This document shows positions 1,338 to 57,535 of a stretch of DNA of 64,000 nt, in pieces. How positions within the stretch are numbered: position 1 is the first letter of the stretch; each line of letters begins with the position of its first letter. The notes below the pieces were generated by a model. The model searched no databases and was not told the origin of the DNA. It saw only the letters and a list, made by a program, of their open reading frames with translations. Source of the DNA: Squalus acanthias (lineage: Eukaryota); contig CM059431.1 in assembly GCA_030390025.1 (NCBI GenBank), positions 106,580,001-106,644,000 of the forward strand, in the 5' to 3' direction. Both the position numbers and the translations under genes were made by a program.

Positions 1338-1567
1338 GCCTGCAGAAAAAAGAAAGTCCTAATCAAAGGGGACATGGCCCCCTTAAATATAGAGGCTCCC
1401 AGCGCGTCATCAAGCTTGATCAGCTGACCCGCACCCACCGATTGGGTCTTTAATGAGGCCAATCTGGGGGAAATCATTATTGTAGGGTGGCTGGAACTGG
1501 GAGCGGGACCGGAACCCGCCAAACGCGGACTCGCCATCATCCCGCCTCCGGGTGGAAAATCCAGCCC
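1..1567 (-). mobile_element. PIF/Harbinger-like DNA transposon carrying a Myb/SANT-like gene; runs off the left edge of the window
   Basis: Terminus reads GGGCTGGATTTTCCA on the minus strand (1567-1553) and resembles the TIR of 25288-28324. The encoded peptides are homologous to the Myb/SANT gene of that element. Confidence 0.8.
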
Positions 1568-1737
1568 TTCGTCTCTTCTGCGATACCCCTGTTAAATACC
1601 CCATTAAAAGTTAGACCCTTTGGATTAGGTGTAACTGGGGTTTTAACAGTGTATTGACTGTTAAACAAAGGTTATGGCCCTGAAAAATTCATTTTAATTT
1701 TGTGGAGTTTCAACTTTATTCATTTTAATAAAACTTA

Positions 1738-2630
1738 GGGGTAGAAATTAGGCCGCGCCCCATTTGGGGCGCAAATATCGTCTGGATGCAAATATTAGCG
1801 CCTGGCGCTAATTATCGGCACTGACGGGAAACTTCACTTTTACCGCCCCGGGAGGTGAGTGGAGCGCTAAATCAGGCGCTGCACACCTGTCTTAAGGCGC
1901 AAAGGCCAAGGAGTGAGGCGCTACCTCAGAGCGCTGGCGAAGCTCATGTAATGTCAGTCAGCAATGGAACACACACACAATGGCACGGGCCAGTTCTTAA
2001 AGGGGATGGTTAATCTTGCTTTCCATCCACATCCTGTTCATTGCAGCCTTGAATCTCGGCCTGGAGAGACTTGCACATCAAATGTGCTGGAAAGAACAAT
2101 GGAGAGTACCAGGCAAAGAGCTCAGAGTGCAGCTCCCACAGTCTCTGCTAAATCGATACAAGGAATGGCAAATCAAAATGAACCTGCAAAGTGCTGCTCA
2201 GTACCCAAAACTCCTTCACACAACGTTGAATCTCTCCAGAAGTCTCTCCCTCTCTCTCTCAGAATGCGTAGTTCAAAAATGCCACCAACAATAAAAGACA
2301 GGAAGAGGCCCCCTTTAAATAGTGCCCCCCCCAGCCCCACAGCGATTGATAGCGTTCCAGTCTTCCGGTCGTTGGAAGCGCCAGGCGGTAAGGCAGGGGG
2401 CGCCACTCAATTTCCGCTCCGGGGCGCCACAAGGGCGTTGCACCATGGAATGACGTCACAATCTGCGCGCGCAGGTGGTCGCAGCGGTAAGTTTGAGCGC
2501 CGCTGCACAATCTCAAGTTAAGTTCTCGAGCGGCGCAAACATCGCTGCGCCCGGGCGTTAGCAGCTTTGCGCCCCATTAGCGCCCTCTTAAGGCGCTAAC
2601 GGGAGGCGCAACCAACTGAATTTTTACCCC
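1738..2630. mobile_element. GC-rich MITE (Harbinger-type TIRs), apparently nested in an older MITE (~1570-3011)
   Basis: Termini GGGGTAGAAATT...AATTTTTACCCC with CpG-rich arms. The TSD is imperfect (TTA/AAA). Confidence 0.6.
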
Positions 2631-3629
2631 AAAATTTTTAATACACTTTCAAAAAAACATTTTTTTTCTTTAAAGTTTGTTCATCTTTATTTCAGGATTG
2701 CCTTTTCCCCATGTGAGAGCCCCAGTCTTTGTTTTGCTTTCCTGACATTTTTAAAAATTAGAATCAAAGGAGCTTCACCCACTTCCTGGTTTGCTGTCTG
2801 TGAGAATTCTGAATTTTAATTGGCTGCTTAAACAGCTTGTTGACGTCACATCAGCTCGCGTTAGGGATTCCCCATTAATGTGCATTGATTTCAATTATGC
2901 GTCAGAAAAGCCGAACTTCTCGCCACAGAGATCGCGAGATCTTTGCGGAAAGCTTACTTCAGGGTCAGCGGTGAATACCTTTTCTTCGCTGCTGACTGCA
3001 AATTACAGTCCTATGTAATTTCTGTTTGTAAATGTTTGGATTTTGCTTTATTTGACTACAATGTACCCTTGGGAAGAAAATGGCCACAGACTCTATGCAG
3101 CACTGCGCAAGGCCGTTTCCTCCTTGATGCCACTTTGGAATGCCAGTACATTAATGCTGTAAGTCCATGTAAATGAGGTAATTAATATTTATTCACTTTG
3201 TGATGCTCAGTAGAATAGCTAAAGCAGTGCCCACGAGGATCTGCCTGCCACGGTGCACCAACACATCCTCAGAGGGTACAATTCGACCCTGTGTTTGCTA
3301 ACTCAGCTCCTTCTCATTGATGGGTTCAGTAACTCCTTCAAACCACTTAACCTGAGGATGTTGTGAACTCTTAGAATCAGCCAAAGTCATTAAATGGTGA
3401 GACTCCCACTTGAACCATTCTCGGGTCCACCTTGAAATCAGAATGCAGTTGCTATTTACTAAACTCTGCAGATACACAAACTGTCGCTTCATTGAGAGTC
3501 AAATTACAGGCTTCTGTTATTGTGTCACGTTTACAGTTTTCGGGTTTGACTCAGATATTATCTGAGACGCACCGAAGCCAGTCACTGCCATAAGTGGTCC
3601 ACATGTCTTACGTTCAGGAGTGTGCCCAC

Positions 3630-5324
3630 TGTAAGGGGTTCGGGTGGCTCTGTGCTTAGCCTGGGTGCTAGTGCGGGGTTAGGCCTTGTTGTCTGTTCTG
3701 GTCTCCAGCCAGCCTGGTAACACTAGACACCGGTGAGTGGTTCGACCCACTCGCCCTTATGGTTCTGACACTGGACTTAGGTGCGAGAGCAATAATGCAG
3801 AGAAAAACTCAGGTAGACCCGGTTGAATAGTGCGAAATGGAAAATCTTTATTGCATATTATTCAAAATTACGAAGTACATGTCATAAGCACAGATCAATG
3901 ACAGTACAAACTTACACATGGTTATGTAACTAAAGCTTGGGAAATGAGGAGTGCACGACACATCGAAAAAGGGGACACACATTATAATTATCCTTAAAAC
4001 ATAAACCCTCCCCTATCAATACCTGTCCTAATCTAGATTTGTAGGATCGAGACTCATGCTCACCACTCGTGATAACTCGGAGAATTCCGAAACTCTGCTC
4101 GGATGTTTTCACCACAGCACCTGACTATCCATGTGTTGATCAGGGGTCTCTGTAACCCACTTGTTTACTCGCTTCTGCTCCGGCTAGCAGGCTGGACCGT
4201 CTGCTGTCATGAAGATCTGTGTTGACCTCGGAACTCTGATAAAACTCAAAGAAGAGTCTTCCTATGCCCGGCATCCGTTAGCCGGTAAAATTCAAAGAAG
4301 TGTCTTTTCGGACCGACACCAGTTGTGGAGTAGCCGATAGAATTCGAAGAAATGGTCCTTATATTTAGAGGCGCGGTCAGGGTTTACTGACTGTGGCGAT
4401 ACGTATTGTCGTCTTCTTCTCTTCTCATCTCATCTCATCTCATCTCATCTCCTCTCGGGCCTTCGGTTCCAACACCGTTTACCGACTTCTCGGGATGGTG
4501 CGCCCACTTATCGGCCTTCACAGTCCAGTTCTCCACAGATCTTCGCGGCAAGCCACGAGGTTGACTCCCGGAAAATCAATGGATCAGAGAATGAGAGTCC
4601 AGAGGCCCAGTCGGTGGTAAAGAATGACAGCACGATGAACAGCCAGAGGATAAGAGCGATAAGAGTCGGTGGTCGGCAGAGAATAAGAGAAAGATGGACG
4701 TTTGGACACTACAGTTTATAGTACTGTAATTCCTTATCTCCCGCCCAATCGTAATGTCCATCTTTTGTCATGTTTTGGCGCTCAAACTTCTTGTATGGGG
4801 TGGTACTTGTCGTTAATGGGTCCCGGTGATACTTGTAACTGTTTGAGTACCCGTTAATATTTCTCCCATTGTGGAACCGGCTAGTAGTCTCCCTGGAGGG
4901 GTTTTTGGGGGCTTCCAAATGCTTGCTGTGAGTACCCGTGAACGGCTCTCTCATCGTAGAGCCGTGGGGATTTTGCATATCAATGTCTTTGGATGGGTCC
5001 CTAATTGCTCAGTACAATAGCCCTCGTTTTTGCATGGAAAACCCGATTCCAGTATTTATGTTTAAAATGCAAACCCATCGCGTCTTGTCATTATCTCAAA
5101 TGTGCTGAGTCCTGTCCGATCTTGCTGAAGTGTTTATTGAAACGGCATCTTGTCTGCCTACTGAAAGTCTAGAACATTCTGCCACGAGGCGTGGCGGCCA
5201 TTTTACAGGCTGCTTGTGTCCTTTTTGAAACATGACAGTATTTTGCTGAAATAAAGCTGTTTATACGAAACTTTATGTCTCCTTCTTATTATTATAAAAT
5301 CGCGATAATTTTGCGAATTCTACA
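3630..5324 (-). mobile_element. Solo LTR (1695 bp)
   Basis: TGTA...TACA termini and a 4-bp TSD CCAC (3626-3629, 5325-5328). AATAAA on the minus strand near 3850, a TATA-like motif near 4360, and a GGTTCGA hairpin as in the other LTRs. Confidence 0.85.
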
Positions 5325-6349
5325 CCACAGTGCCCAATATCAATACAATAACATAATCAGGGGGTTAACAATAGGACCTGCTGGTGATCTGAACTGGATA
5401 TTGTGTCTTTTGCACATGCCCTCCCACGCACTTCTCCAATCTTTTTGAAGACAGACAGAAAAAGCTCTTAGTGAGATGAGGCCAGATATAAATTGTTAAG
5501 CTGCAAGTAACTCACAACTGAACATACTGAATAACAGTTAGAGCATATTTCATTTGCTCAATCTCACTTTTCTCTCTTGAAAAACCTGAGAATAAATGAT
5601 AAATTATGTGGCCTCTCACTTTCATTCTGACTTACTTTTTTTTGGGCATTACCTTTTAAGACAACTTCTAACTGCAAACTAACCCCTTGCATCTTAGCTT
5701 CCAGCTCTGGGTCACGGGTGTGGAGGATGCATTCTGTTCAGTTGACTGACTCTCCTTTCTGCTCTCTCTTCCCAGCCAATGGAAAGTCTGTGATTCTGAC
5801 TTACTTCCTTGTTCAGTGATTCGCTTGTAGGTTTGTTAACAAAACCAGCTAACTCTCCTATCTCGTTAGGGTGCAGGGACAAAGAAAACAACTCCTGCGA
5901 TTCTCGATATGAATCGAGGCCATCTTCATTAATAGGCCTGAGACCCTCATTGTATTGATTTACAATAGATTGTGAGTTATGAAATTCTATAAACTGGCTT
6001 GTCTGATTTTACTACACATTTTCAATGCCTGTAACCTGTTGCCTTTTTTTTAAACGAAGTGTATATTGACACCGTCATGTCCGCCAATGAGTTGGAGGTG
6101 GGGCGAGACTTACGGTCGGACTCACAGCAGACAAAATCTATTTACTCAGCAAACAGAGTCTATTTAAACAGCACACTACAGCAAACAGAACTCATGACCG
6201 AAACTACAGCAAAGTCTCCCAATAAAACCAAGATTATTTCTCCAGCAAAATATAGTGAACGGAGGATAGCTACACAACTCAAATGATGTGCGTAAAATCA
6301 ATCCCAGTCACTTACAGCAGTGCGGTCTCCAGGCACATTATCTCCCGGT

Positions 6350-6770
6350 TAAGCAGCGCCTCGATTTCAAAATTCTCATCCTTGTTTTCAAATCCCTCCA
6401 TGGCCTCGCCCCTTCCCTATCTCTGTAATCTCCTTCAGCCACACAACCCCCCCGAGATATCTGCGCTTCTCTAATTCTGCCCTCTTGAGCATCCCTGATT
6501 ATAATCGCTCAACCTTTGGTGGCCGTGCCTTCTGTTGCCTGGGCCCTAAGCTCTGGAATTCCCTGCCTAAACCTGTCCGCCTCGCTACCTCTCTTTCCTC
6601 CTTTAAGACGCTCCTTAAAACCTACCTCTTTGACCAAGCTTTTGGTCACCTGCCCTAATTTATCCTTTTGTGGCTCGGTGTCAAATTTTTTGTCTTAAAA
6701 TTCTCCTGTGCAGCGCCTTGGGACGTTTTACTACGTTAAAGGCGCTATGTAAATACAAGTTGTTGTTGTG
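6350..6770 (+). mobile_element. L2 LINE 3' fragment
   Basis: DFKILILVFKSLHGLAP-type 3' region with a (TTG)n tail. Near-identical copies at 42085-42650 and 62955-63300. Confidence 0.8.
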
Positions 6771-7274
6771 ATTGACGGGGGAATTACCCAATCATCTCCA
6801 TTCTAGCCGGGACTTCTGGTGTCACTCTATGCAACCTTTTGTACAACCTGCGCAAATTCACTTTGCATTAAAACACAACCCTTAAGCACAACTCAATCCC
6901 AAGGTTTGTACTTGTTCCTGCTATCAGGTTAAATTGCAGAGTGGAAGGTGACCAGAGAGCTCCACAGGGAAAGACGGCCTTCGGAACACAAGGAACCTAC
7001 CTGCATGAATTACACATCCGTGTCATAAGGAAACAGGTAATCCCAAAGCCTCCGGCAAAGTAGCAACTAATTTGACTGGCTCACATAATGGATGGCTGCA
7101 ATGGCTCTGATACATGCCGGTCAAAAATTATTTGTTAATTTGTTTAAAACATGCATATTAATTACCAATAGCTGAAAGATCCATTTGGAATCTTTAATTT
7201 TTAAAGAAAAAAAACCATACGTCATTAAAGCTTGGAGTCGATTGTAACTGTTCCCGCTGGGCGGGAGTGGGGCA

Positions 7275-7637
7275 TAAGAACTAGGAGCAGGAGTAGGCCA
7301 TACGGCCCTTCGAGCCTGCTCCACCATTCAATAAGATCAAGGCTGATCTTCGACCTCAACTCCACTTTCCCTCCCGACCCCCATATCCCTTGATTCCTCT
7401 GGAGTCCAAATATCTATCGATCTCAGCCTTGAATATACTCAACGACTGAGCATCCACAGCACTTTGGGGTAGAGAATTCCAAAGATTCACAACCCTCTGA
7501 GTGAAGAAATTCCTCCTCATCTCAGTCTTAAAAGGCCGGCCCCTTATCCTGAGACTGTGCCCCCTAGTTCGAGACTCTCCAGGCAGGGGAAACAACCTCT
7601 CAGCAATTATTCTGTCAATTCCTCTCAGAATCTTATA
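7275..7637 (-). mobile_element. CR1 LINE 3' fragment
   Basis: ESRTRGHSLRIRGRPFKTEMRRNFFTQRVVNLWNSLP plus the CR1 3' UTR. Confidence 0.9.
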
Positions 7638-9334
7638 TGGGTCGCCACCCGTTTTAGACCCCGCTTGCTTTTCCAATGGAAAAGAAGATCAGGCAGGGTG
7701 TAAAACAATGGCTAACCCGCTGCCTCCTGTTTCCTGCCCGGAAGTAAAGACAATTGGCTCCCCACTTGCACCATAACAGATTCCTGAGGGAGTACCGCGC
7801 CAACAGCTCCATTGCCCGCAGCTAATTGAAGACGCCCTGTGAATCTAATTTCAGATTCAGAGGTGGGGGGGTGGGGGGGGGGGAGAGGGGGTGAAGGATC
7901 TGAATATGTTTGAGCCACCGGAATAAGAGAGGGTAGCATGTGCTACTTGATGTTTACATTAGGGATGAGAGGTGGCGAACCATTTCTTGGCTGATTTGTG
8001 GTTCACTTGAAGCAGCTGCTGGTTCTCCAGAAGCATATTCTCAATCTACATGAACAGTTGTTGCTTCTGCTGAAGCAGCTGTTGGAGTTGCTGAAGGAGC
8101 ACTTGGGACATTCTGTGCCAGATCTTAACTTGCCTGCACCAGCTGATTCACAAGTGAATACATCCCAGGGGGTGTCTGAATAGATAATTTCACCGCGATT
8201 ACGAAGCGAGCAGTTTTCCATCAGGCTTTGCGATCAGTCACAACCTCAGCTGAGGACTTAGTTCTGTCTGAGGTGTGGGGAGGAAAATGGAGCGGGGATG
8301 GTCGCTTTTGCTGTCAGAGGAGGGGGGGGTGGAAGCTATTGGTGTCTGTAGCTTGTAGCAATATATAACATAGCTGGCTTCAAAGGCTTAATGGGCAACT
8401 ACACTGCATGGTGTATTATTGACCTACGGAGACCAAAAAGGTATCAGGTCCTATTCATGGTCGGAGCTGAGTTGGTCTAAGGTTGCAGTGAGGAGGGAAA
8501 TGTGCTGTGCAATGATCCACTGCTTTTAGGAAATGAGAGGGGAGGGGAGCAAATTAGAGGGAAACTAGAGGGGGCAGGTAGTATATCAAATGTAACATCC
8601 TTGGTTCTCGAGTGCTGCATGTACTGTTTGTAGTTCTGGAGTTGAAAGGGGTCTGGGCTCCACTGAGAATTGGAACAAAGCATTTCTGTTTGGGCTCAAA
8701 GAAATGAGAGTGGCCGGGAAGAATGATTTTTGAGACAGGTTTAAAAAAAAATATGAAAATCATTGTGGCATTGGAACACCACCGCATGGTGCCAATGAGT
8801 GGAGGGCACTGGTTTGAGTCACCACCCTGTTGCGTTCTCCATCTGAGCCTTGCTTTGTAGGGAAACAGAGAGGAGCCCATATATCTTACTAATAATGCAT
8901 GCCTCCAATGGTTGCTCCTCATATGCTTCAGAGCAGAATGCCTGCCCTGTCTTCTCAATTTTGGATGCTTAGCTAAAATTTTGAAGCAGTCATTAGTGTG
9001 GTTAGTAAAAGAAGATTAGGAGCAATGTGAGTAAAACTGAGAATTTAATTCTGTGTTCAAAGCTAGATTGAGGCAGCCAGGAAGGCATTGAGACAGCAGC
9101 TTGAATTGGTGAGTAAGTAGTTTAGAGATCCAGTGGAAAGTAGCAGATCAGTCAGATTGTGCCATGGCTCAGTGGTAGCACTCAGCCTTTGGCTTCCTAA
9201 TGAGTAGTGAATTAGTCCATGTCAATCTCTTTGTCTCTCTCCCTCCTCCTCCTTCCTCCCCTCTACCATCCATCTTCTGTAGAAGCATGAAAAGTGTAAT
9301 GAGTTTTCTGCTGTCCATTTTTATCTTCTTGTTA

Positions 9335-48627: not shown

Positions 48628-48712
48628 GATTATCCTGACGCTCGGCCTATTTGTTACCACTTGACCTAGCAGTGGAAAAAAATCTTTCATTGTTTACCTT
48701 CTCAAAATCTTT
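48628..48712 (+). repeat. Left copy of the 85-bp direct repeat (right copy 56527-56611)
   Basis: GATTATCC(T/C)GACGCTCGG...CTCAAAATCTTT, with 2 mismatches. Confidence 0.95.
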
Positions 48713-49598
48713 AAAGTAAGACAAAGGTCCTCTACCAACCTACCCCCGCCACACAGTACTGCCCCCCGATTATCAAAATCCACGACAAGGCCTTGGACAA
48801 CGTGGACCACTTTCCATACCTCGGAAGCCTACTGTCAACAAGGGCAGACGTCGACGAGAAAGTCCAACACCGCCTTCAGTGTGCCAGTGCAGCCTTTGGT
48901 CACCTGAGGAAGAGAGTGTTTGAAGACCAGGACCTCAAATCCGGCACTAAGCTCATGGTCTACAGAGCAGCAGTGATACTTGCCCTGCTGTATGCCTCAG
49001 AGACATGGACCATTTGCAGCAGGCACCTCAAAGCACTGGAGAGGTACCACCAACGCTGTCTCCGCAAGATCCTGCAAATCCATTGGCAGGATAGGCGCAC
49101 CAACGTCAGTGTTCTCGCTCAGGCCAACAACACAGCATCGAAGCTTTAACCACGCTCGATCAGCTCCGATGGACAGATCACATTGTCCGCATGCCCGATA
49201 CGAGACTCTCAAAACAAGTGCTCTACTCGGAGCTCCGGCACGGCAAGAGAGCCCCAGGTGGGCAGAGGAAATGTTCAAGGACACGCTCAAAGCCTCCTTG
49301 AAAAAGTGTAACATCCCCACCGACACCTGGGAATCCCTGGCCCAAGACCGCACAAAGTGGAGGAGAAGCATCCGGGAAGGCGCCGAACACCTCAAATCTC
49401 TTCGCCGGGAGCAAGCGGAAGCCAAGCGCAGGCAGCGCAAGGAGCGCACATCAACCCAAGCACCCCACCCACCCGCCCCTTCAACCATCATCTGCCCCAT
49501 CTGTGACAGAGACTGTAGGTCCCACATTGGACTCATCAGTCACCTGAAAACTCATTTTTAATGTGGAAGGAAGTCATCCTCAGTTCCGAGGGACTGCC

Positions 49599-50699
49599 TA
49601 TAGGGGGTGGTGGTGGAAGGGTCAGCCTTACCCCTGACACAGTGAGCGGTTCGAATTGCTCCCACGCCCTAGGTTCAGACCTTGGACTTATTTAGGGGTT
49701 GTGAATAAAGATGCAGTAGACACCAGGTTCCGATGAAAGAATTTTGACTTTTATTAAAAGAAAAAGGTAACAAACTTAAAACACACTTAACACTTAAACA
49801 GGTTGGAGAACACACGGTACAGGCGAGGGAGAAAGACAATATACAAAAAACCCTTATCCCTCCCAAAAATCCCACTATCTAGCTAGGTTTCCGTTTCAGG
49901 AGATCAGGGATACTGCTCACCAAACAAGGGTTTTAACAGTGCGAAATCCAACCAGGTAAGTTGATGGTGATCTGGTCGTCGAGTGTCTTCCTGGAACGTG
50001 CTGCTTCTGGAACAGAGCTGAGAGGGAGCTGTACCAGTGTTGTCAGAGAGTCCGGAGAGAGTGCTCTTGGGGAATTATGCCCCCCAATTATACTTGTTCA
50101 GCTCCTTTGTTCTTTTTTTCGCTCCCAGAACCCCTTACTAAAGATGGTTTCGTGCTGAAGTGATTTGGTTTCAGTTGAGGCCTGTTCATTCCATTGTCTT
50201 GGTTTTGCGGGCTTGTTAAGTTTTGATGGGTTTAACTTGGTGTTAAAAATGTTCTGAACTCGCTTCTTACTGAACTGTTGTAACTGCTTGATGGGCCTTC
50301 AATTATGCTAAACCAAATCAAATCCTGGTCATTGAAAGACCTCGTCAACAATAACGGCTTTTTACTGAGTGTCAAATGGCTTGCGTCCTGTCGATCTGTT
50401 GTTTAATCGGAGTTTGCATTGTCCTCGTGTTTTGGGTTTCTTGCTGGGCCTAGCACTCCTATCTTTATGCGTCTCTTTAATGGGTTCTGTGTTTTGGGTG
50501 GGGCTGCCTTCTCCCAGGGCCTATTGTCCAAATGTTAATGTTTGCTGGGGCTTGAATTCCAGCCTTTTAAAATGCCAAAGCTTGGTTTTGGTCTTAAATT
50601 CCTTCTGTTAGGCCCAAATGCATTTTTATCACTCTGGGGTAGTTCCAAAGTCCTTTTTCCTTAGATTTTTGGGAATCTGCAAATTTTGGAAACTTTACA
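49599..50699 (-). repeat. 3' LTR
   Basis: Direct repeat of 55408-56513; begins TGTAAAG on the minus strand directly after the PPT. Confidence 0.95.
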
Positions 50700-50711
50700 G
50701 TCCCCCCTCCG
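50700..50711 (-). other. Polypurine tract
   Basis: GGAGGGGGGAC abuts the 3' LTR. Confidence 0.9.
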
Positions 50712-50988
50712 ATACATTGAGTTCACTACAGTATCGTCCTGGGTGGACAAAATTCCTGATCCCCGAAAACCAACGTTCCCCTGTAATACCTAAATTAAAA
50801 CCCAAACATACATTCCCCTTTAAATGTGGTGTTTTAGGTACATACAGGTAAGAAAATCTTTATTTCACAACCAAGCATGGAGAGGGTCCGACACCCCTGC
50901 ACTGCTTGGGAAAACACACATATCTTTATTAAAAAGAACAAAACACAAAAAAAAACAATCTTTATTCAGGAACACAGAATAAAAAAAT

Positions 50989-52480
50989 TCAAACAGGTGT
51001 ATCTCTCTCCACCTCAGCATAATGCTTCTTCCAAGTCCTTTCATTTCGGAACTGTAGTATTCTGCCCTTTCCCTTGCAGTGAGTGCACAACAGGTACAAC
51101 ACTATTCCCAGTTGGCAAACTACGAGGATGTGGGAAGCCATTCTGACCCATGAAGGGACCTCTATGTTTTCAAAGATGTCCCACCAGGGTGGGACTGTGA
51201 TACCTTGAATCTCTCTCTCTATCTCGTGTGTTTTCTGTTCTAAAGTGTAGAAATGTTTTTGTGATAGCGCTACAGCTTTTAGTAACTTGGTAAGGCGTTC
51301 TGGTAGAGGGGGAATTTCATAGCCAAAATGTGCTACATATTTTTGCAGGTTGGTGAAATTTTGTGTTACAGTGAGGTGAACAGTGGAGGGTTCAGGAATG
51401 GGGACAATCCGTTCCTGGGCCACTTGAACTTCTGCCTCGGGTTTAAAGCAGAAACTGCTGTCACTTACCGGACACCAGGTTTACTGTCCATGCTGGTAGT
51501 GAGGCGCGCTGGTGGTGACACAATATGTCCCACCTCCTATATATGCTATCTGTGGAGGAACATGGTCTTGTGCCATTACCTCCATGGTACAGTTTATAGG
51601 TCGTGCGCCAGCAGCTTTAAACCCGCACTGTGGTTTAGAATAGGCGTTCAAGTGCTGGGGACACAGTATCATGTGTGCTCCCCGGCTACGGCACCCGGAG
51701 AGGTCTGTACCTGTCATAGCGTGCTCCCACTTTATGACATAAGGTGGGACCGCTGTGAAATGGATGTGTGCACCCCCTTGAATGACTCCAATGTTCTCCA
51801 CCCTGTATACCGGTGCGGGTCGGGCTGTCCCACCCATGACCGGCATCCTCACCACTATCCCCATGATAGTGTGATTGGAACACCCACAATCTACTGGTAC
51901 AGGGTAGGCTTCAGAGGCTAGACGGAGCTGACACGGGCTTAGTGAATTCTCAAATGGGTGGAGGGCTGTGAGGTGCTTGTTGCTGATCCAGGAGGGGACT
52001 AAACCTTGCTTTAAATCCTCCAGTTTACTCCGGCCCTCGCCTAGCAACCATGCCCCGTACAGTACGCACACCTCATTCTGTGCAGCCTGGTCTGATGCAT
52101 TCCTGTCCTCCCGTATGAGTGCATTTACTGTCTTTGCGTGCCTTTCCAGCTCAGCAATGATTTTTTCAAAAGGACCATCATAGCTTGGTCCTCGTGTAAC
52201 TCTGAGCCCACTACTGTATTTTCATCCATTAAGATTTTGCATAATTGTGTTTTTAAACCGTTTATTTGTGTCTGCAATTCTATGTCATCCAGACTGTTGA
52301 TGACAGAGGATCCTGTATTTTATGCTGTGAAAACATCATTCCAGGCTCCCCTCAATTGTCTCCCCGTATTGCTAAAATACTCAGTGTGTGCAGTGTACAG
52401 TTCTGTTTTGTCTATGTTTGCGAAATCGAACTCGTAGAACTTCCTGAACATTTCTCTCAACAGGGCCTGGTCGAAATCCC
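50989..52480 (-). pseudogene. env: env-like class I fusion glycoprotein, with stops and frameshifts
   Basis: RQLR|GAWNDVFTA cleavage and fusion-peptide-like segment, heptads, a Cys-rich domain (51481-52071), a second heptad, PWWD and the TM segment ILVVCQLGIVLYLLC. Confidence 0.75.
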
Positions 52481-52712
52481 TTCTGTAAGGAGACACAAGA
52501 GCATATAGCCAGGTCCCGAGTAGATTCTCTGGCTTGGGTGAAGCATAGTCGGGTCTTGCGACCTCAACTCAATACAAACACTCTTGAAACTATAACATTT
52601 AAAACTACCAACCACCTTACTTAAAATTTAACTAAAAACACCCAAACTTAACAATCTCAAAATTTAGCAACAAAAGCTATGTACATTCGCCGCCCGTCTC
52701 CGAGCGGCCAGA

Positions 52713-53579
52713 CTAAACCCTGTACGGGCTGCAGCACACTACTCTCTTTGGTGTGGCCGCCCTGTCCTGTACCTTTGGTCCCTTGCAGCCTATGGCCTCT
52801 GTCCTCAGATCGATCCCTGACTTGAGGGGCGGCCCTTTTAAATTGGGGAGCTGGTGACCACGGTTTCTTTGGCTGTGGCGTACATGGGGAGCTTCTAAGG
52901 GCTCTGGCTGGTGGGGGTTTTCTGGCTGGTGGGTCTTTAACATGAGCCACTGCCCCTGTTGTGTGGTCTGTGAATCTTCCACTACCACTGGCGGGGGATT
53001 TCTATCCTCAGGCTGTACCTCTTCTAAACCTGTGTCAGGGTCAGGTGACTCTTCGCAGCCTGGTGCTGCAGGCTGAGGGTCCTCGCCCTCAGGTCCCACC
53101 TCCTCTAAATCCCAGAGGATTGGGGGAATGTCCCAAACGGTGGGTGGGGTGGCCCCTCCCCTAAGACAGGCCGCCGCCCCTGCTTGTGCAGTCTGTGAAT
53201 TTGGTCCTGCTGCAGGCTGAGGATTTCTATCCTGTTTTAGTTTGGGCAACTCTGCTACCATGGCTTGCAACTGCGGGGTGGTGAATTCCCCCGGGGTTGT
53301 TGAGCAAACCATCCCTCTGGCTTTGAATAGGGCTTGAGTCAGACCTTTTATCCTTTCCTCACAGGGCCCATGGTTTAAATCCTCATACCCCCTGCTCCTG
53401 GCTACCCTGTAGGCTGCCTTTATGTCTCTAAGCTGCCCCTCTAGCCCATCTACTTTCCCCGTTAAGCGGGCGTTCTCCTCCCGTAAGGTCTGCTCATTTA
53501 ACCTGGCCTCCTTACGGGAGGTCTCTTCCTGTGCGTGTCTTTCAAGGGGACACAGGTAGACAGGCTGCGCTGGTTCTAG
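52713..53579 (-). CDS. Open frame continuing gag after TGA-CTAG: Gag-like coiled-coil duplicate plus a Pro/Glu-rich region
   Basis: Manual translation LEPAQPVYLCPLERHAQ...LREENARL...AAYRV...HGPCEERI...KARG continues into ORF 52713-53312 with no stop. Confidence 0.6.
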   Translation of the reverse strand, partial: LEPAQPVYLCPLERHAQEETSRKEARLNEQTLREENARLTGKVDGLEGQLRDIKAAYRVARSRGYEDLNHGPCEERIKGLTQALFKARGMVCSTTPGEFTTPQLQAMVAELPKLKQDRNPQPAAGPNSQTAQAGAAACLRGGATPPTVWDIPPILWDLEEVGPEGEDPQPAAPGCEESPDPDTGLEEVQPEDRNPPPVVVEDSQTTQQGQWLMLKTHQPENPHQPEPLEAPHVRHSQRNRGHQLPNLKGPPLKSGIDLRTEAIGCKGPKVQDRAATPKRVVCCSPYRV

Positions 53580-55405
53580 TCATAGGTCTGGGTTGTATGG
53601 GGCTGATGGGGTCAGAGCACCGGTGGTTGCTGCTACCTTCCCTGGGCCAGTCAATAGGGACCTCATGGCGTCCAACAATGACTCGACCGTGGCGGGAGGG
53701 TTCCCTGTCTCTGCCTTTTGGGCTGGGGCTGAGGAATTATTTCCCTTGTTATCCTTCCAAGGATTCTTATACTCCTTCCTCCAGTGTCCATCCTTCCCAC
53801 ACCCATAACAGTTAAGCTTTGTGCTGGAAGGGTTATTCCCTTCCTGATGCCATTCCTTCCTACTCTGGCTGAGTTTTATTTCATGCACTTTTCCCTTTTG
53901 TGGGGGCTCTTCAGCTCCTCTACAGTTCCGGTAGGCCAGGTTCAGCTGTCTGACCACTGCCTCCTCGGTGACCCGGGGGTCTTTCGGGTCAAACCAAACC
54001 TCAGCCTGGGTTTTGATCCATGGCAAGCTGTTTGCCACTAGGCTACGGAGCCAGTGGGCCAGCTCGTCCCAGTTTAGGTGAGCCCTGTTAAGATCCCCAC
54101 TACAAGCACCCCTGTACATGGGCCACAGCCTGTCAGCGAAAGCCTGTGGGGTCTCTCCTGCGAGCTGCACTGTTTTCTCCACCTGGGAGAAAGGACTTCC
54201 CTCATTCATCACCATGGCCTCTAAAACTTCCTCTCTGATGGCAGCATATCCATTCTGTCCTCTCTTGCTCTCAGCAGAGAGGGACTGGTATCGTCTGCTA
54301 TCCAGTGAGAACAGGAGCATTTTTGCCATCTTGGCATCATCACAGTTGTTGATGCCTGCTGCCTGTTCTACTTCTATGAAGTGAACTGAGGGGTCCCCTT
54401 GTTGGGTGAGTTTACTCAGGTGGCTTACCATAACCCTAAGCTGTTGTGTACCGTGGGGAGCCACGAACTGGTTTTGGAGGGGTCCCCCATCCACGTCATC
54501 AGCGGGTGGGCCAAACCTTTGCTGCCGGGCCGGGCACATCGGCCCCGGTCCCAGCCTCTCTTGCGGGGGTTTTTCCACCTCAGCTTCTGCCCCTAAATCC
54601 ACCCCTTCTTGCCAGACTTCGTTAAAGCTTGGCGCTACGGGTGGTGGTCGTGGGCCCTCCTGCTCCTCAACCGGGTCGTCCCTTGGCACTATCTTTGGTG
54701 TTTGAACTGTTCTCCCCAGGTTCCCTGTAAAGTCGACCTGGGCTGCACTTGGGCTTATGAGGCACGCCACGCCACGCCTCTTGCCTTCCTTAGAGCAAGG
54801 TTGTGAGTCTCTATCTGCTTCTGGCAGGGGCCATGGTCTGCATCCTCAAACCCCTGTGCGCTCATTACCTTATAGGCTGCCTGTAAGCCTTTTACTGTCT
54901 CCTCCTGCTCTCTTACTTGTTTTGCCAGGCGGGCATTCTTTTCCCGCAACCTCAGCTCATTGTTCTTGGCCTCTGTGACCTGACACTGTAAATAATCCTG
55001 CCGGGTCTTATACTCTCCCGCTAACTGCACCCTTTCCTGGTTTAGCGCCTGCAATGCTAACAGTAACTTCTCCCCTGCTAGGGCCTTTGTTTGGACTTCC
55101 AGGGCTGTCTCCCGAATCTCAGCTGCCTGTGCTTCAACGAGTCAGTCCAAAGGTTGGATCTGTTTCTTGAAGCACATCAGCCAGACTGCCTTTTCTAAGG
55201 ATGTTTTATGATCCTTCCCTTCTGTCCATTTAGCTGCTGCATCTACCGGGCGCCCAGTCTTTAACAGATTAGTGACCCACTTCTTTTCCATATTCACTTT
55301 GCTGAATACATAATCTGAAATCCTTTCTTCCATTACAGTTCTCTCTTCCGAATCAGTGTCTACTGCTTCACAACCCTTTTGCCAAGTCCGTGCCACGGTC
55401 GCCAT
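53580..55405 (-). pseudogene. gag: gag-like gene: coiled coil, capsid and zinc knuckle
   Basis: MHR-like QLAGETPQAFADRL and degenerate CCHC CYGCGKDGHWRKEY. One stop at 55142 and a frameshift near 54770. Confidence 0.85.
55385..55404 (-). other. Primer binding site, tRNA-Arg(UCG)-like
   Basis: TGGCGACCGTGGCACGGACT lies 3 nt after the 5' LTR. It resembles the complement of the vertebrate tRNA-Arg(UCG) 3' end (recalled sequence). Confidence 0.7.
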
Positions 55406-55407
55406 TA

Positions 55408-56513
55408 TGTAGGGGGTGGTGGTGGTAGGGGTCAGCCTTACCCCTGACTCAGTGAGCAGTTCGAATCGCTCCCACGCCCTAGGTTCAGACCTTGGACTTA
55501 TTTAGGGGTTGTGAATAAAGATGCAGTAGACAACAGGTTCCGATGAAAGAATTTTGACTTTTATTAACAGAAAAAGGTAACAAACTTAAAACACGCTTAA
55601 CACTTAAACAGGTTGGGGAACACACGGTACAGGCAAGGGAGAAAGACAATATTAAAACAAAACCCTTATCCCTCCCAAAAATCCCACTATCTAGCTAGGT
55701 TTCCGTTTCAGGAGATCAGGGATAATGCTCACCAAACAGGGGTTTTAACAGTGCAAAATCCAACCAGGTAAGTTGATGGTGGTCTGGTCATCGAGTGTCT
55801 TCCTGGAACGTGCTGCTTCTGGAACAGAGCCGAGAGGGAGCTGTGCCAGCGTTGTCAGAGAGTCCGGAGAGAGGGCCTCTTGGGGAATTAGACCCCCCAA
55901 TTATACTTGTTCAGCTCCTTTGTTCTTTTTTTCGCTCCCAGAACCCCTTACTAAAAATGGTTTCATGCTGAAGTGATTTGGTTTCAGTTGAGGCCTGTTC
56001 ATTCCATTGTCTTGGTTTTGCGGGCTTGTTAAGTTTTGATGGGTTTAACTTGGTGTTAAAAATGTTCTGAACTCGCTTCTTACTGAACTGTTGTAACTGC
56101 TTGATGGTCCTTCAATTATGCTAAACCAAATCAAATCCTGGTCATTGTAAGACCTCGTCAACAGTAACGGCTTTTTACTGAGTGTCAAATGACTTGCGTC
56201 CTGTCGATCTGTTGTTTAATCGGAGTTTGCATTGTCCTCATGTTTTGGGTTTCTTGCTGGGATTAGCACTCATATCTTTATGCGTCTCTTTAATGAGTTC
56301 TGTGTGTTGGGTGGGGCGGCCTTCTCCCAGGGCCTATTGTCCAAATGTTAATGTTTGCTGGGGCTTGAATTCCAGCCTTTTAAAATGCCAAAGCTTGGTT
56401 TTGGTCTTAAATTGCCTTATGTTAGGCCCAAATGCATTTTTATCACTCTGGGGGAGTTCCAAAGTCCTTTTTCCTTAGATTTTTAGGGATCTGCAAATTT
56501 TGGAAACTTTACA
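55408..56513 (-). repeat. 5' LTR
   Basis: TG...CA termini, followed by the PBS. Confidence 0.95.
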
Positions 56514-57535
56514 TGCCTAAGAAGAAGATTATCCCGACGCTCGGCCTATTTGTTACCACTTGACCAAGCAGTGGAAAAAAATCTTTCATTGTTTACCTTC
56601 TCAAAATCTTTCATCATTTTGAAAATCTCTGTTAGATCCAATTCTTTGAGCCTTTCTTCTAAACTATAACTTATTCTTTGTATCATTTCTAGTGAATCTC
56701 CATTGTACACCATCATAAATCCTTCCTATAATAGAGTGCCCAGAACTGTGCATAATAATCCAACTGTAGTCCAACCAAAACCTTGTTCAAATTCTGCATG
56801 ACTTCCTTGCTTTTAGATTTAAGGCTCATATACAAAACCTAGAATCGCATTTACCTTTCTATGGGCTTGTCTACCTGTTCTCTCATTTTCAAAGGTCTAA
56901 TAATTTGCACCCCTAGATCACTCTGTCTCTTCATGCTGTTATGAATCTTATTTTTTCTGCATACTTCCTTTCACAAAATCTACTATTTCACATTGCTACC
57001 TTCCTGCCCACACTGCTAATTTTTAATAGCATATACTTTAGCTATTGTAAAAAAAAAAGTCTCATGTGACATCTTATCGAGCAGGTAGAAAAGACTATAA
57101 AAAAGTAAATGGGATTCTCGGTTTTATATATAAGAACCTTAAATCCAAAAGCAAGGATTCTGAAGATCTATATATACACACACACAAAATAAACCACGTT
57201 CTCTTTATCAACTCAAAATGGCTGCTTGTGCTTGTGGGGTCTGGAGTACTTAAACTGACCAGAGATCTACATCATGAGAGTTACCAGCAAATACAAATAC
57301 AACTATACTATACCAAAGGCTTTTAGCCGGACTTAACCCAACTGATGGCCAAACTGTTACACTGGCACCCGCCCCCAGATTCTGCCATTTTCCTGGCAGT
57401 CCTGCCTCCATATCCGACTCCCCAGGGCTGGCAAGATCGCGCCCCTCATCTCTCTCCTGTGACTAAGTCACAAAATATCATAATTGTCCCAGAGAGACCT
57501 GCCAGCCACTTGCCTGTCTTCCTACTTGTAATAAT

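Follow-up and report, generated by a model that had tools for sequence, protein, structure and literature searches.

A pol-less element and the frame behind its gag stop

The window analyzed here is a stretch of 64,000 nucleotides of the Squalus acanthias genome (assembly GCA_030390025.1, contig CM059431.1, positions 106,580,001 to 106,644,000). On its minus strand, at 49599-56513, it holds a retroviral element that carries long terminal repeats (LTRs) at both ends, has gag and env sequences and lacks pol. The 5' LTR (55408..56513, 1106 nt) starts with TG and ends with CA, the 3' LTR (49599..50699) starts with TG and ends with TA, and the two form direct repeats that are 96.1% identical over 1104 nt. 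The gag gene (53583..55405) encodes an N-terminal coiled coil, a capsid part and a CCHC knuckle. It ends at a TGA stop (53580..53582) that is followed by CTA (53579-53577) and G (53576), and from there an open reading frame (ORF) of 288 codons, which we call ext, extends over 52716..53579 to its own stop at 52715-52713. Downstream lies an env remnant, located by tblastn at 50992..52469. The 1494-residue Pol of an autonomous relative, described below, has no match anywhere in the window (tblastn, E 1e-4). Both structural genes are damaged. The window gag is interrupted by an in-frame stop (codon 88, about 55144-55142) and, near 54778, by 5 inserted nt; the window env has an in-frame stop at ~51480 and is missing about 870 nt of its 5' part at 52471, a site at which 14 of 20 other loci carry 869-873 nt. 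The window element is an old, decayed retrovirus copy, and it is dead.

A preliminary description of the locus had placed the gag stop in a UGA-CUAG context, with gag ending PYNPDL-TGA-CTA-G and the same frame staying open for 288 codons. Both statements are true of the window copy, in which all the strings quoted in that description are found. The distal gag frame (53580..54845, minus strand, 421 aa) ends in PYNPDL and then TGA, and the next frame (52713..53579) abuts it in phase and encodes 288 aa beginning LEPAQPVYLCPLERH. When the 864 nt were shuffled 2000 times with dinucleotides preserved, every shuffled sequence contained in-frame stops (mean 10.8), and the other five frames across ext hold 6 to 21 stops each. 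The frame had also been described as free of lesions. Comparison with L040, a copy elsewhere in the genome, refutes this, since the window ext carries two compensating frameshifts, one a deletion of 1 nt near 52956 and the other of 14 nt near 52796. Because these deletions jointly restore the frame, a different frame, likewise open, is used for ~53 codons. Two further deletions, of 6 nt near 53096 and 9 nt near 53068, are in frame.

Genomic copies, an autonomous relative and the makeup of ext

Queried with 988 nt spanning the junction, the 3.7-Gb genome yielded 2130 first-look candidates. The 40 that were scored all matched and lie on many contigs; 25 of them, the window copy included, span nearly the full query at 87-100% identity. 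Thirty loci were returned, 28 of which include the gag stop, and each of the 28 keeps the TGA, with no sense codon seen at this position. The codon after it is CTA in 6 of the 28 and CTG in 22. Twenty copies were taken at full length; copies were compared without a consensus, with L040, one of the twenty, as the coordinate reference. Between its LTRs, which are 95.7% alike, L040 holds only a gag of 599 aa, the TGA, an ext of 298 aa and an env of 765 aa (counted from the first ATG), and all of these are open. The arrangement holds across the family, many copies having the junction and the open frame, and the layout is intact in L040. Co-option of L040 by the host was considered and rejected, its private substitutions (28 non-synonymous, 10 synonymous) being neutral-like. 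It should be noted that the 5' flank of L040 (2-1228) holds the integrase C-terminus and env start of another similar retrovirus, so that L040 is a nested insertion.

Several sublineages can be distinguished. Six copies (L005, L006, L007, L009, L010 and L014) lie on one strand within 2 Mb (G000:C6:55.17-57.13 Mb), and because the three full-length ones (L034, L035 and L043) have identical gag lesions, this cluster looks like a segmental duplication of the host rather than six insertions. A second pol-less family, represented by L029 and L030 and by about 9 more matches that cover only positions 1-735 of the query, has the arrangement gag-TGA(CTA)-ext. Its ext is 359 aa long and is open in one of the two copies examined (L030), and its env is nearly all lost, the signal peptide being fused almost directly to the cytoplasmic tail. 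In a deletion variant found as an inverted pair on G000:C39 (L027 and L028), the Gag linker is joined to the middle of the ext coiled coil, with removal of the capsid, the nucleocapsid, the stop and the first ~52 ext codons. As a separate observation, env differs by ~14% of nucleotides between two clades (L046, L047, L049 and L050 versus L040), while gag and ext differ by only 3-5%. This pattern suggests that env was exchanged between lineages.

A young autonomous retrovirus lies ~16 Mb away on the same contig (L051 and L052, G000:C7:122737001-122750500, minus strand; 13.5 kb examined). Its gag ORF (1345-3237), a TGA (3238-3240) and its pol (3241-7722) are all in frame 0, and the stop context is TGA-CTAG, as in the window copy. 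The 1494-aa Pol starts with LEPAQPVYLCPL, has the protease motif DTGA and matches the Pfam families RVT_1, RNase_H, Integrase_H2C2 and rve. The stop is ~75 residues after CYGCGKTGHWRKHC and ~34 before DTGA, that is, between the nucleocapsid zinc knuckle and the protease. After the enzyme domains there is an SH3 match below the Pfam cut-off, and past this SH3-like stretch comes a disordered Pro/Glu-rich tail of ~270 aa (L051 5779-6600, minus strand), for which no Pfam match was reported. On sequence comparison this tail is the part of Pol that the pol-less family kept. The Gag of the relative is 46% identical to that of L040 by tblastn and 46-49% identical overall, and its env is 68% identical to that of the pol-less family. 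Its LTRs are 99.86% alike over 1424 nt, and its gag, pol and env frames are open. With its 560-nt gag-pol junction as query there were 3094 first-look candidates, and at least 40 genomic copies have 98-100% identity; this is a very recently active family. The named genes that come nearest to its Pol are the 'NYNRIN-like' ones of frogs and coelacanth (41-42% identity), and the protein scores alike against solved structures of Ty3, gammaretroviral reverse transcriptase (RT) and foamy virus protease-RT.

With the relative in hand, the origin of ext could be examined. The preliminary description had proposed that pol was replaced by a captured segment of gag kept in frame. The replacement and the gag piece are real, but ext is a mosaic in which the start of pol and the Pol tail also persist. 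The first 12 ext codons, LEPAQPVYLCPL (53544..53579, minus strand), equal the first 12 pol codons of the relative. In the window all 12 residues are the same, with 4 synonymous differences, and in L040 11 of 12 are the same. A 42-nt island at the junction is 90.5% identical between the window and the relative, and the remaining blastn matches are at 65-75%. In a codon alignment of L040 with the relative, the stop and the 12 codons after it have the highest amino-acid identity among 582 windows and tie for the top nucleotide identity (three windows reach 0.85; the mean is 0.59). Judged from these alignments, the gag-pol/ext junction is a conserved island.

Beyond the junction, residues 24-97 of ext (53289..53510, minus strand) form the diverged paralog of the Gag coiled coil that had been noticed earlier. 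By BLASTP, residues 24-90 share 31 of 67 identities (46%, E 7e-17) with the Gag coiled-coil ORF at 54755..55141, and tblastn places their counterpart in gag at 54773..54973 (minus strand). The paralogous segment falls within helices predicted at residues 11-63 and 70-93. These, and a third helix at 101-116, come from an AlphaFold2 model of the L040 ext made without an alignment, in which the mean predicted local distance difference test (pLDDT) is 56 and values fall below 50 across the Pro/Glu-rich part. Residues ~100-118 resemble the start of the Gag capsid part (z 4.8), and the insert probably also holds that start. The remainder, a Pro/Glu-rich and disordered part (52716..53147, minus strand), is homologous to the C-terminal tail of the relative's Pol. 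The last ~155 residues of ext align with this tail at a score of 125, compared with a mean of 54.8 and a maximum of 81 for shuffled sequences (z 7.6); over the last 77 aa tblastn gives 34% identity (E 5e-5 to 6e-5), and both frames finish ...RV-stop. A 50-nt direct repeat in the Pro/Glu-rich part (52959-53008 and 53184-53233) is 74% alike. Because ext begins with the first 12 codons of pol and ends with a homolog of the Pol tail, it is the surviving pol frame with a gag insert, joined as before to the retroviral gag-pol junction.

Database searches added little to this picture. Pfam gave no significant family for the ext of the window or of L040, and no ext homologs were found among proteins of 163-522 aa. 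Against 1.84 billion representative proteins there were 4 matches, all of Gag type and all to the coiled-coil part. A predicted protein of different origin in the representative library, P0121 (203 aa), has a Gag-type coiled coil directly linked with the beginning of a similar Env, and looks like another deletion derivative elsewhere. A predicted complex of the Gag coiled coil (60-216) with ext (1-118) was unsupported (score 0.02, mark 0.34), which is evidence neither for nor against an interaction.

Maintenance of the ext frame and probable readthrough of the gag stop

Substitutions present in at least two copies were taken as having arisen in lineages still copying, and singletons as having arisen mostly after insertion. 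The tests used 14 of 21 gag, 20 of 28 ext and 11-12 of 20 env sequences; five of the six copies from the segmental duplication were dropped, as were copies with large deletions or poor alignment. The pairwise ratio of non-synonymous to synonymous differences per site (pN/pS) is 0.38 in frame and 1.0 in the off-frames for gag, and 0.24 in frame and 1.2-1.5 in the off-frames for env. Likewise, the ratio of non-synonymous to synonymous substitution counts (N/S) is lower for shared substitutions than for singletons in both gag (0.79 versus 2.32, p 2e-4) and env (0.65 versus 2.27, p 5e-10).

For ext, the evidence of selection lies in the reading frame. Of its six shared insertions and deletions (indels), five are multiples of three and the sixth is in the last codon, compared with 2 of 22 multiples of three among the shared indels of the non-coding LTR and ext-env spacer (Fisher p 0.0012). 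Among private ext indels, 4 have lengths divisible by three and 10 do not. None of the 71 shared ext substitutions makes or removes an in-frame stop, against about 2.7 expected by our arithmetic from the singleton rate of 5/130, and the two alternative frames have 7 and 3 such changes. The ext frame was held open in lineages that went on copying. A check for a dN/dS (ratio of non-synonymous to synonymous substitution rates) below 1, which the preliminary description had suggested, gave a divided answer: the coiled-coil piece of ext compared with the element's own Gag has a dN of 0.41 and a dS of 1.05 (dN/dS ~0.39), but the shared substitutions of ext as a whole are near neutral. Between the family's Gag and that of the relative, dN is 0.46 and dS is 1.28. 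The coiled-coil split is thus about as deep as the split between the two Gags, which indicates that the duplication is old and has not drifted freely.

From these results it is probable, though some way from certain, that the window element belongs to a multi-copy, pol-less family of endogenous retroviruses with the layout LTR-gag-UGA-ext-env-LTR, in which ext is the pol frame with a gag insert, held open and presumably expressed by readthrough of the gag stop. Several observations weigh against this interpretation. In ext, N/S is 47/24 (1.96) for shared substitutions and 92/33 (2.79) for singletons, a difference that is not significant (p 0.33), and the off-frame values for shared substitutions are 2.50 and 2.14. 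The pairwise pN/pS of ext is 0.61 in frame and 0.75-0.81 in the off-frames. Amino-acid constraint on ext is weak. The analysis moreover covered only 28 copies of possibly hundreds. Among the 21 long copies, full frames are found for gag in 3, for ext (at least 288 aa) in 12, of which 10 are in the regular frame, and for env in 3 of 20. By our arithmetic, however, the lesion rate per codon is about equal for the three genes, at roughly 0.003. Since loss per codon is equal, gag, ext and env decay alike after insertion; the clean look of the window ext, which had been read as a sign of selection beside a broken gag and env, follows from its short length, intact ext frames being about as frequent as that length predicts. 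Two more adverse points concern the stop itself. The canonical CUAG is present in the window copy, in 5 others and in the autonomous relative, but 22 of 28 copies have CUGG, and the three bases following C are critical in the OPRL1 context according to the available part of PMC4132726. Finally, a stimulatory RNA structure was not found by folding or Rfam, although no dedicated pseudoknot search was made: the relative's junction has no significant structure (z 0.0 for 113 nt, -1.0 for 83 nt), and Rfam holds no readthrough element for either sequence; its chance hits in the window resemble snoRNAs and stay below threshold, and the junction of the relative has no hit.

The near-neutral N/S of the shared substitutions, the pN/pS of ext, the loss of CUAG in 22 of 28 copies and the absence of a stimulatory structure in these searches also favor an alternative, in which ext is an untranslated relic: pol would have been gutted by recombination and the remainder carried as RNA, for example for cis-acting signals, and would be open by descent. 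The Pro/Glu-rich part, which is locally open in more than one frame, also fits this alternative. We consider it improbable in view of the length-biased shared indels, the lack of stop changes among shared substitutions, the dN/dS of about 0.39 in the coiled coil at a dS of about 1, and the complete failure of shuffled sequences to remain open. In addition, the 12 codons after the stop have been retained almost without amino-acid change, in proteins whose Gags are overall 46-49% identical.

Gag-pol readthrough is accepted for gamma- and epsilon-type retroviruses. UGA-CUAG gave 3.5-31% readthrough in human cells with just 12 nt of 3' context, as given in the available text of PMC4132726, and the available part of PMC13517186, a 2026 review of readthrough in animal viruses, lists fish and frog retroviruses with a UGA between gag and pol; UGA-CUAG is not among the retroviral contexts listed in that part. 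We infer readthrough from the in-phase junction, which the relative must use for Pol, together with the kept frame, the published efficiencies of UGA-CUAG and the UGA junctions of fish and frogs; on this sequence and comparative evidence, ext was very likely reached by readthrough of the UGA in active members. A hairpin with a perfect stem of 12 bp, CCUCCCGUAAGG/CCUUACGGGAGG, is predicted at 53477..53521 (minus strand), 62-106 nt from the T of the stop and in sequence not derived from pol. The 110-nt fold after the stop has a z of -3.2 in the window, with 1 of 200 shuffles as stable, and of -2.4 in L040, with 2 of 200. The hairpin is kept across copies, among which no compensatory changes were seen.

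Protease, RT, RNase H and integrase are gone from the frame, and a diverged Gag coiled-coil piece and, probably, the start of the capsid part occupy their place. The proposed course of events is then as follows. In active members a small share of ribosomes would read through the UGA to give a Gag-ext fusion, which would enter particles through its Gag part, as Gag-Pol does, while the enzymes would be supplied in trans by an autonomous relative. Since the sequence of ext is weakly constrained, a role that depends on its length, frame or ends is more likely than a folded, enzymatic one. Candidate roles are retention of the Pol tail and of the junction at which cleavage would occur, or mere tolerance of readthrough. 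A bolder possibility, which we put forward tentatively and think doubtful, is that Gag-ext serves a virus parasite as a 'Pol mimic' that has been maintained, with both ends of Pol, the junction and the disordered C-terminal tail, around a spare copy of the Gag coiled coil. If so, the 12-residue junction would be a cut site for the helper's protease, and particles would gain a minor component shaped like Gag-Pol; alternatively, the fusion would compete with the Gag-Pol of the helper. This would imply long selection (dS is about 1 since the coiled coil was copied) that persisted in one sublineage even after env was lost.

In foamy viruses, Pol is translated from a spliced message. By that precedent, ext could be made separately from Gag, either after splicing or from an internal start such as Met 90 or, in the larger clade, Met 40. 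Residue 40 is indeed Met (LMGKV) in the larger clade, and most of the 28 copies have Met 90 (RGMVC). However, the coiled coil is upstream of Met 90, and the subfamily of the window has no in-frame ATG there after the TGA. Furthermore, in all 28 copies ext starts in phase at the codon right after the gag stop, which is the exact pol junction of the relative. Contigs from four runs of uncertain kind cover the whole element piecewise and are no evidence on transcription or splicing. No splice joint was seen in them; their sole long joint (53423 to 54482, run X3) corresponds to the deletion variant L027/L028, which exists as DNA. Separate expression is in our view quite unlikely, and readthrough of the gag stop is preferred.

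Equally unlikely is the interpretation originally given, a lokiretrovirus in which a captured gag segment took the place of pol and was selected as an aid to co-assembly with a helper. The gag-like piece is real and so is the shared open frame, and an N-terminal coiled coil is also described for the lokiretrovirus-derived BHIKHARI Gag in the available part of 10.1101/2024.03.25.586437, but half of ext is derived from pol and not from gag, the contrast of ext with gag and env is explained by its shorter length, ext itself carries frameshifts, and the lokiretrovirus assignment is not supported, on the grounds given below.

Relation to known retroviruses and other features of the element

The lokiretrovirus label was examined through Env, RT and the published host range. 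The intact Env of L040 has no match to PF00523 (F0), hmmscan giving only weak matches to Tricorn_C1 and Ig_3 at E up to 1 and no family at E 0.01 or better, and the Env of the relative has no Pfam family at E up to 0.01. The RT motifs in the available part of the PMC7947760 supplement are IYVDDIL and PLSRWP for lokiretroviruses, compared with QYVDDLL and PACAPTV in the relative, and no lokiretroviruses were found in the 3 Orectolobiformes genomes screened in PMC7947760. On these grounds the label is not supported. According to the preliminary description, production of Gag-Pol by readthrough is reported for lokiretroviruses. Neither PMC7947760 nor PMC9040795 mentions readthrough, read-through, frameshift or stop codon in its main text, and in the portion of the PMC7947760 supplement available 10 headings read '(smc-/spc7-)gag-pol gene', with gag and pol as one gene. 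A resemblance does exist, in that the family's Gag has a coiled coil ahead of the capsid part, as in some lokiretroviruses, although it has no Pfam SMC match. As far as the accessible part of PMC7947760 describes them, lokiretroviruses are likewise retrovirus-like elements of lower vertebrates with an SMC-like coiled coil before Gag, and a long fusion subunit of Env is a further likeness. They often have a single (smc-)gag-pol gene, and none was reported from the cartilaginous-fish order screened; here, Env is without likeness to PF00523 and the RT motifs differ in the part available.

The autonomous relative resembles the gamma- and epsilon-type viruses in having gag and pol in one frame with a single stop between the knuckle and DTGA. 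Its stop is UGA, as in SSSV, ZFERV and RMEV according to the available part of PMC13517186; the context, however, is UGA-CUAG, and not UAG-G with a pseudoknot, nor UGAAGA, UGACGA or UGAAGU, which are the UGA contexts listed in that part. In Moloney murine leukemia virus (MoMLV) a spacer and a pseudoknot follow the stop; none was found here, though pseudoknots were not the object of a dedicated search. In the family of the window, the downstream frame furthermore has no enzymes. The seven bases UGA-CUAG of OPRL1, OPRK1, AQP4, MAPK10, MDH1 and some alphaviruses, as listed in the available part of PMC4132726, are the same as those of the window copy, 5 other copies and the relative. They stand here at a retroviral gag-pol junction, and 22 of the 28 pol-less copies have CUGG in place of CUAG.

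One parallel in gene content is BHIKHARI of zebrafish (Bik-1 and Bik-2), which the available part of 10.1101/2024.03.25.586437 presents as a pol-less LTR element that needs a partner's enzymes and has a Gag with coiled coil and capsid. Gag is the only long ORF in the consensus of Bik-1, and Bik-2 lacks pol and env but retains gag, whereas the family of the window keeps env, the CCHC knuckle and a post-stop frame made of pol ends and a second coiled coil. Defective retroviruses of the Gag-Onc type provide a second parallel. In these, an in-frame substitution of pol gives a Gag fusion and a helper is needed. The deletion of pol, the retention of frame and the dependence on a helper are shared with them, but the insert here is the element's own gag-type sequence, the retained stop requires readthrough, and the arrangement was kept through long germ-line amplification. 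The window's family varies on defective retroviruses that are already known and reveals no new mechanism or kind of system. It offers a clean natural example of how a retrovirus without its enzymes can retain the readthrough junction between gag and pol together with the pol frame, and fill the latter with a duplicate of the coiled coil of its Gag. In addition, it directs attention to a retroviral lineage with a UGA-CUAG gag-pol junction, a context that the available part of PMC4132726 records for vertebrate genes and alphaviruses. With a pol-less family residing beside a very young autonomous relative, this genome provides material on defective elements that exploit active ones. Among the titles and abstract openings searched, no relevant literature was found on shark endogenous retroviruses with a gag coiled coil.

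The window element has the hallmarks of a non-autonomous endogenous retrovirus, namely LTRs, a primer-binding site, a polypurine tract and a target-site duplication, with the pol enzymes absent. The duplication is of 4 bp, GGCA (56517-56514 and 49598-49595), and the polypurine tract, GGAGGGGGGA (50710-50701, minus strand), lies before the 3' LTR. The likely primer-binding site, TGGCGACCGTGGCACGGAC (55386..55404, minus strand), begins 2 bases past the 5' LTR; sites of the same type are at the same place in L040 (about 1998-2015) and in the autonomous relative. This putative site overlaps the first gag ATG (55405-55403). Five copies (L036, L037, L048, L049 and L050) share a 1-nt deletion at gag codon 5 and, given this deletion and the overlap, the real start of Gag may be a later Met.

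By tblastn, the window gag matches L040 Gag in two frames, with 95% identity over residues 1-212 and 85% over residues 188-599. The Pfam zf-CCHC match in Gag is weak (E 0.082 in the window, E 0.0026 in L040), and a sequence search found no match for Gag among longer proteins. In the ESM Atlas the L040 Gag falls among clusters of retrotransposon Gag (score 0.94).

Outside the element, an 85-nt direct repeat, 98% alike, is found at 56527-56611, just outside the 5' LTR, and at 48628-48712, ~900 nt past the 3' LTR. Between the second of these copies and the 3' LTR lies a reverse-transcriptase fragment of a long interspersed nuclear element (LINE), at 48715-49561.

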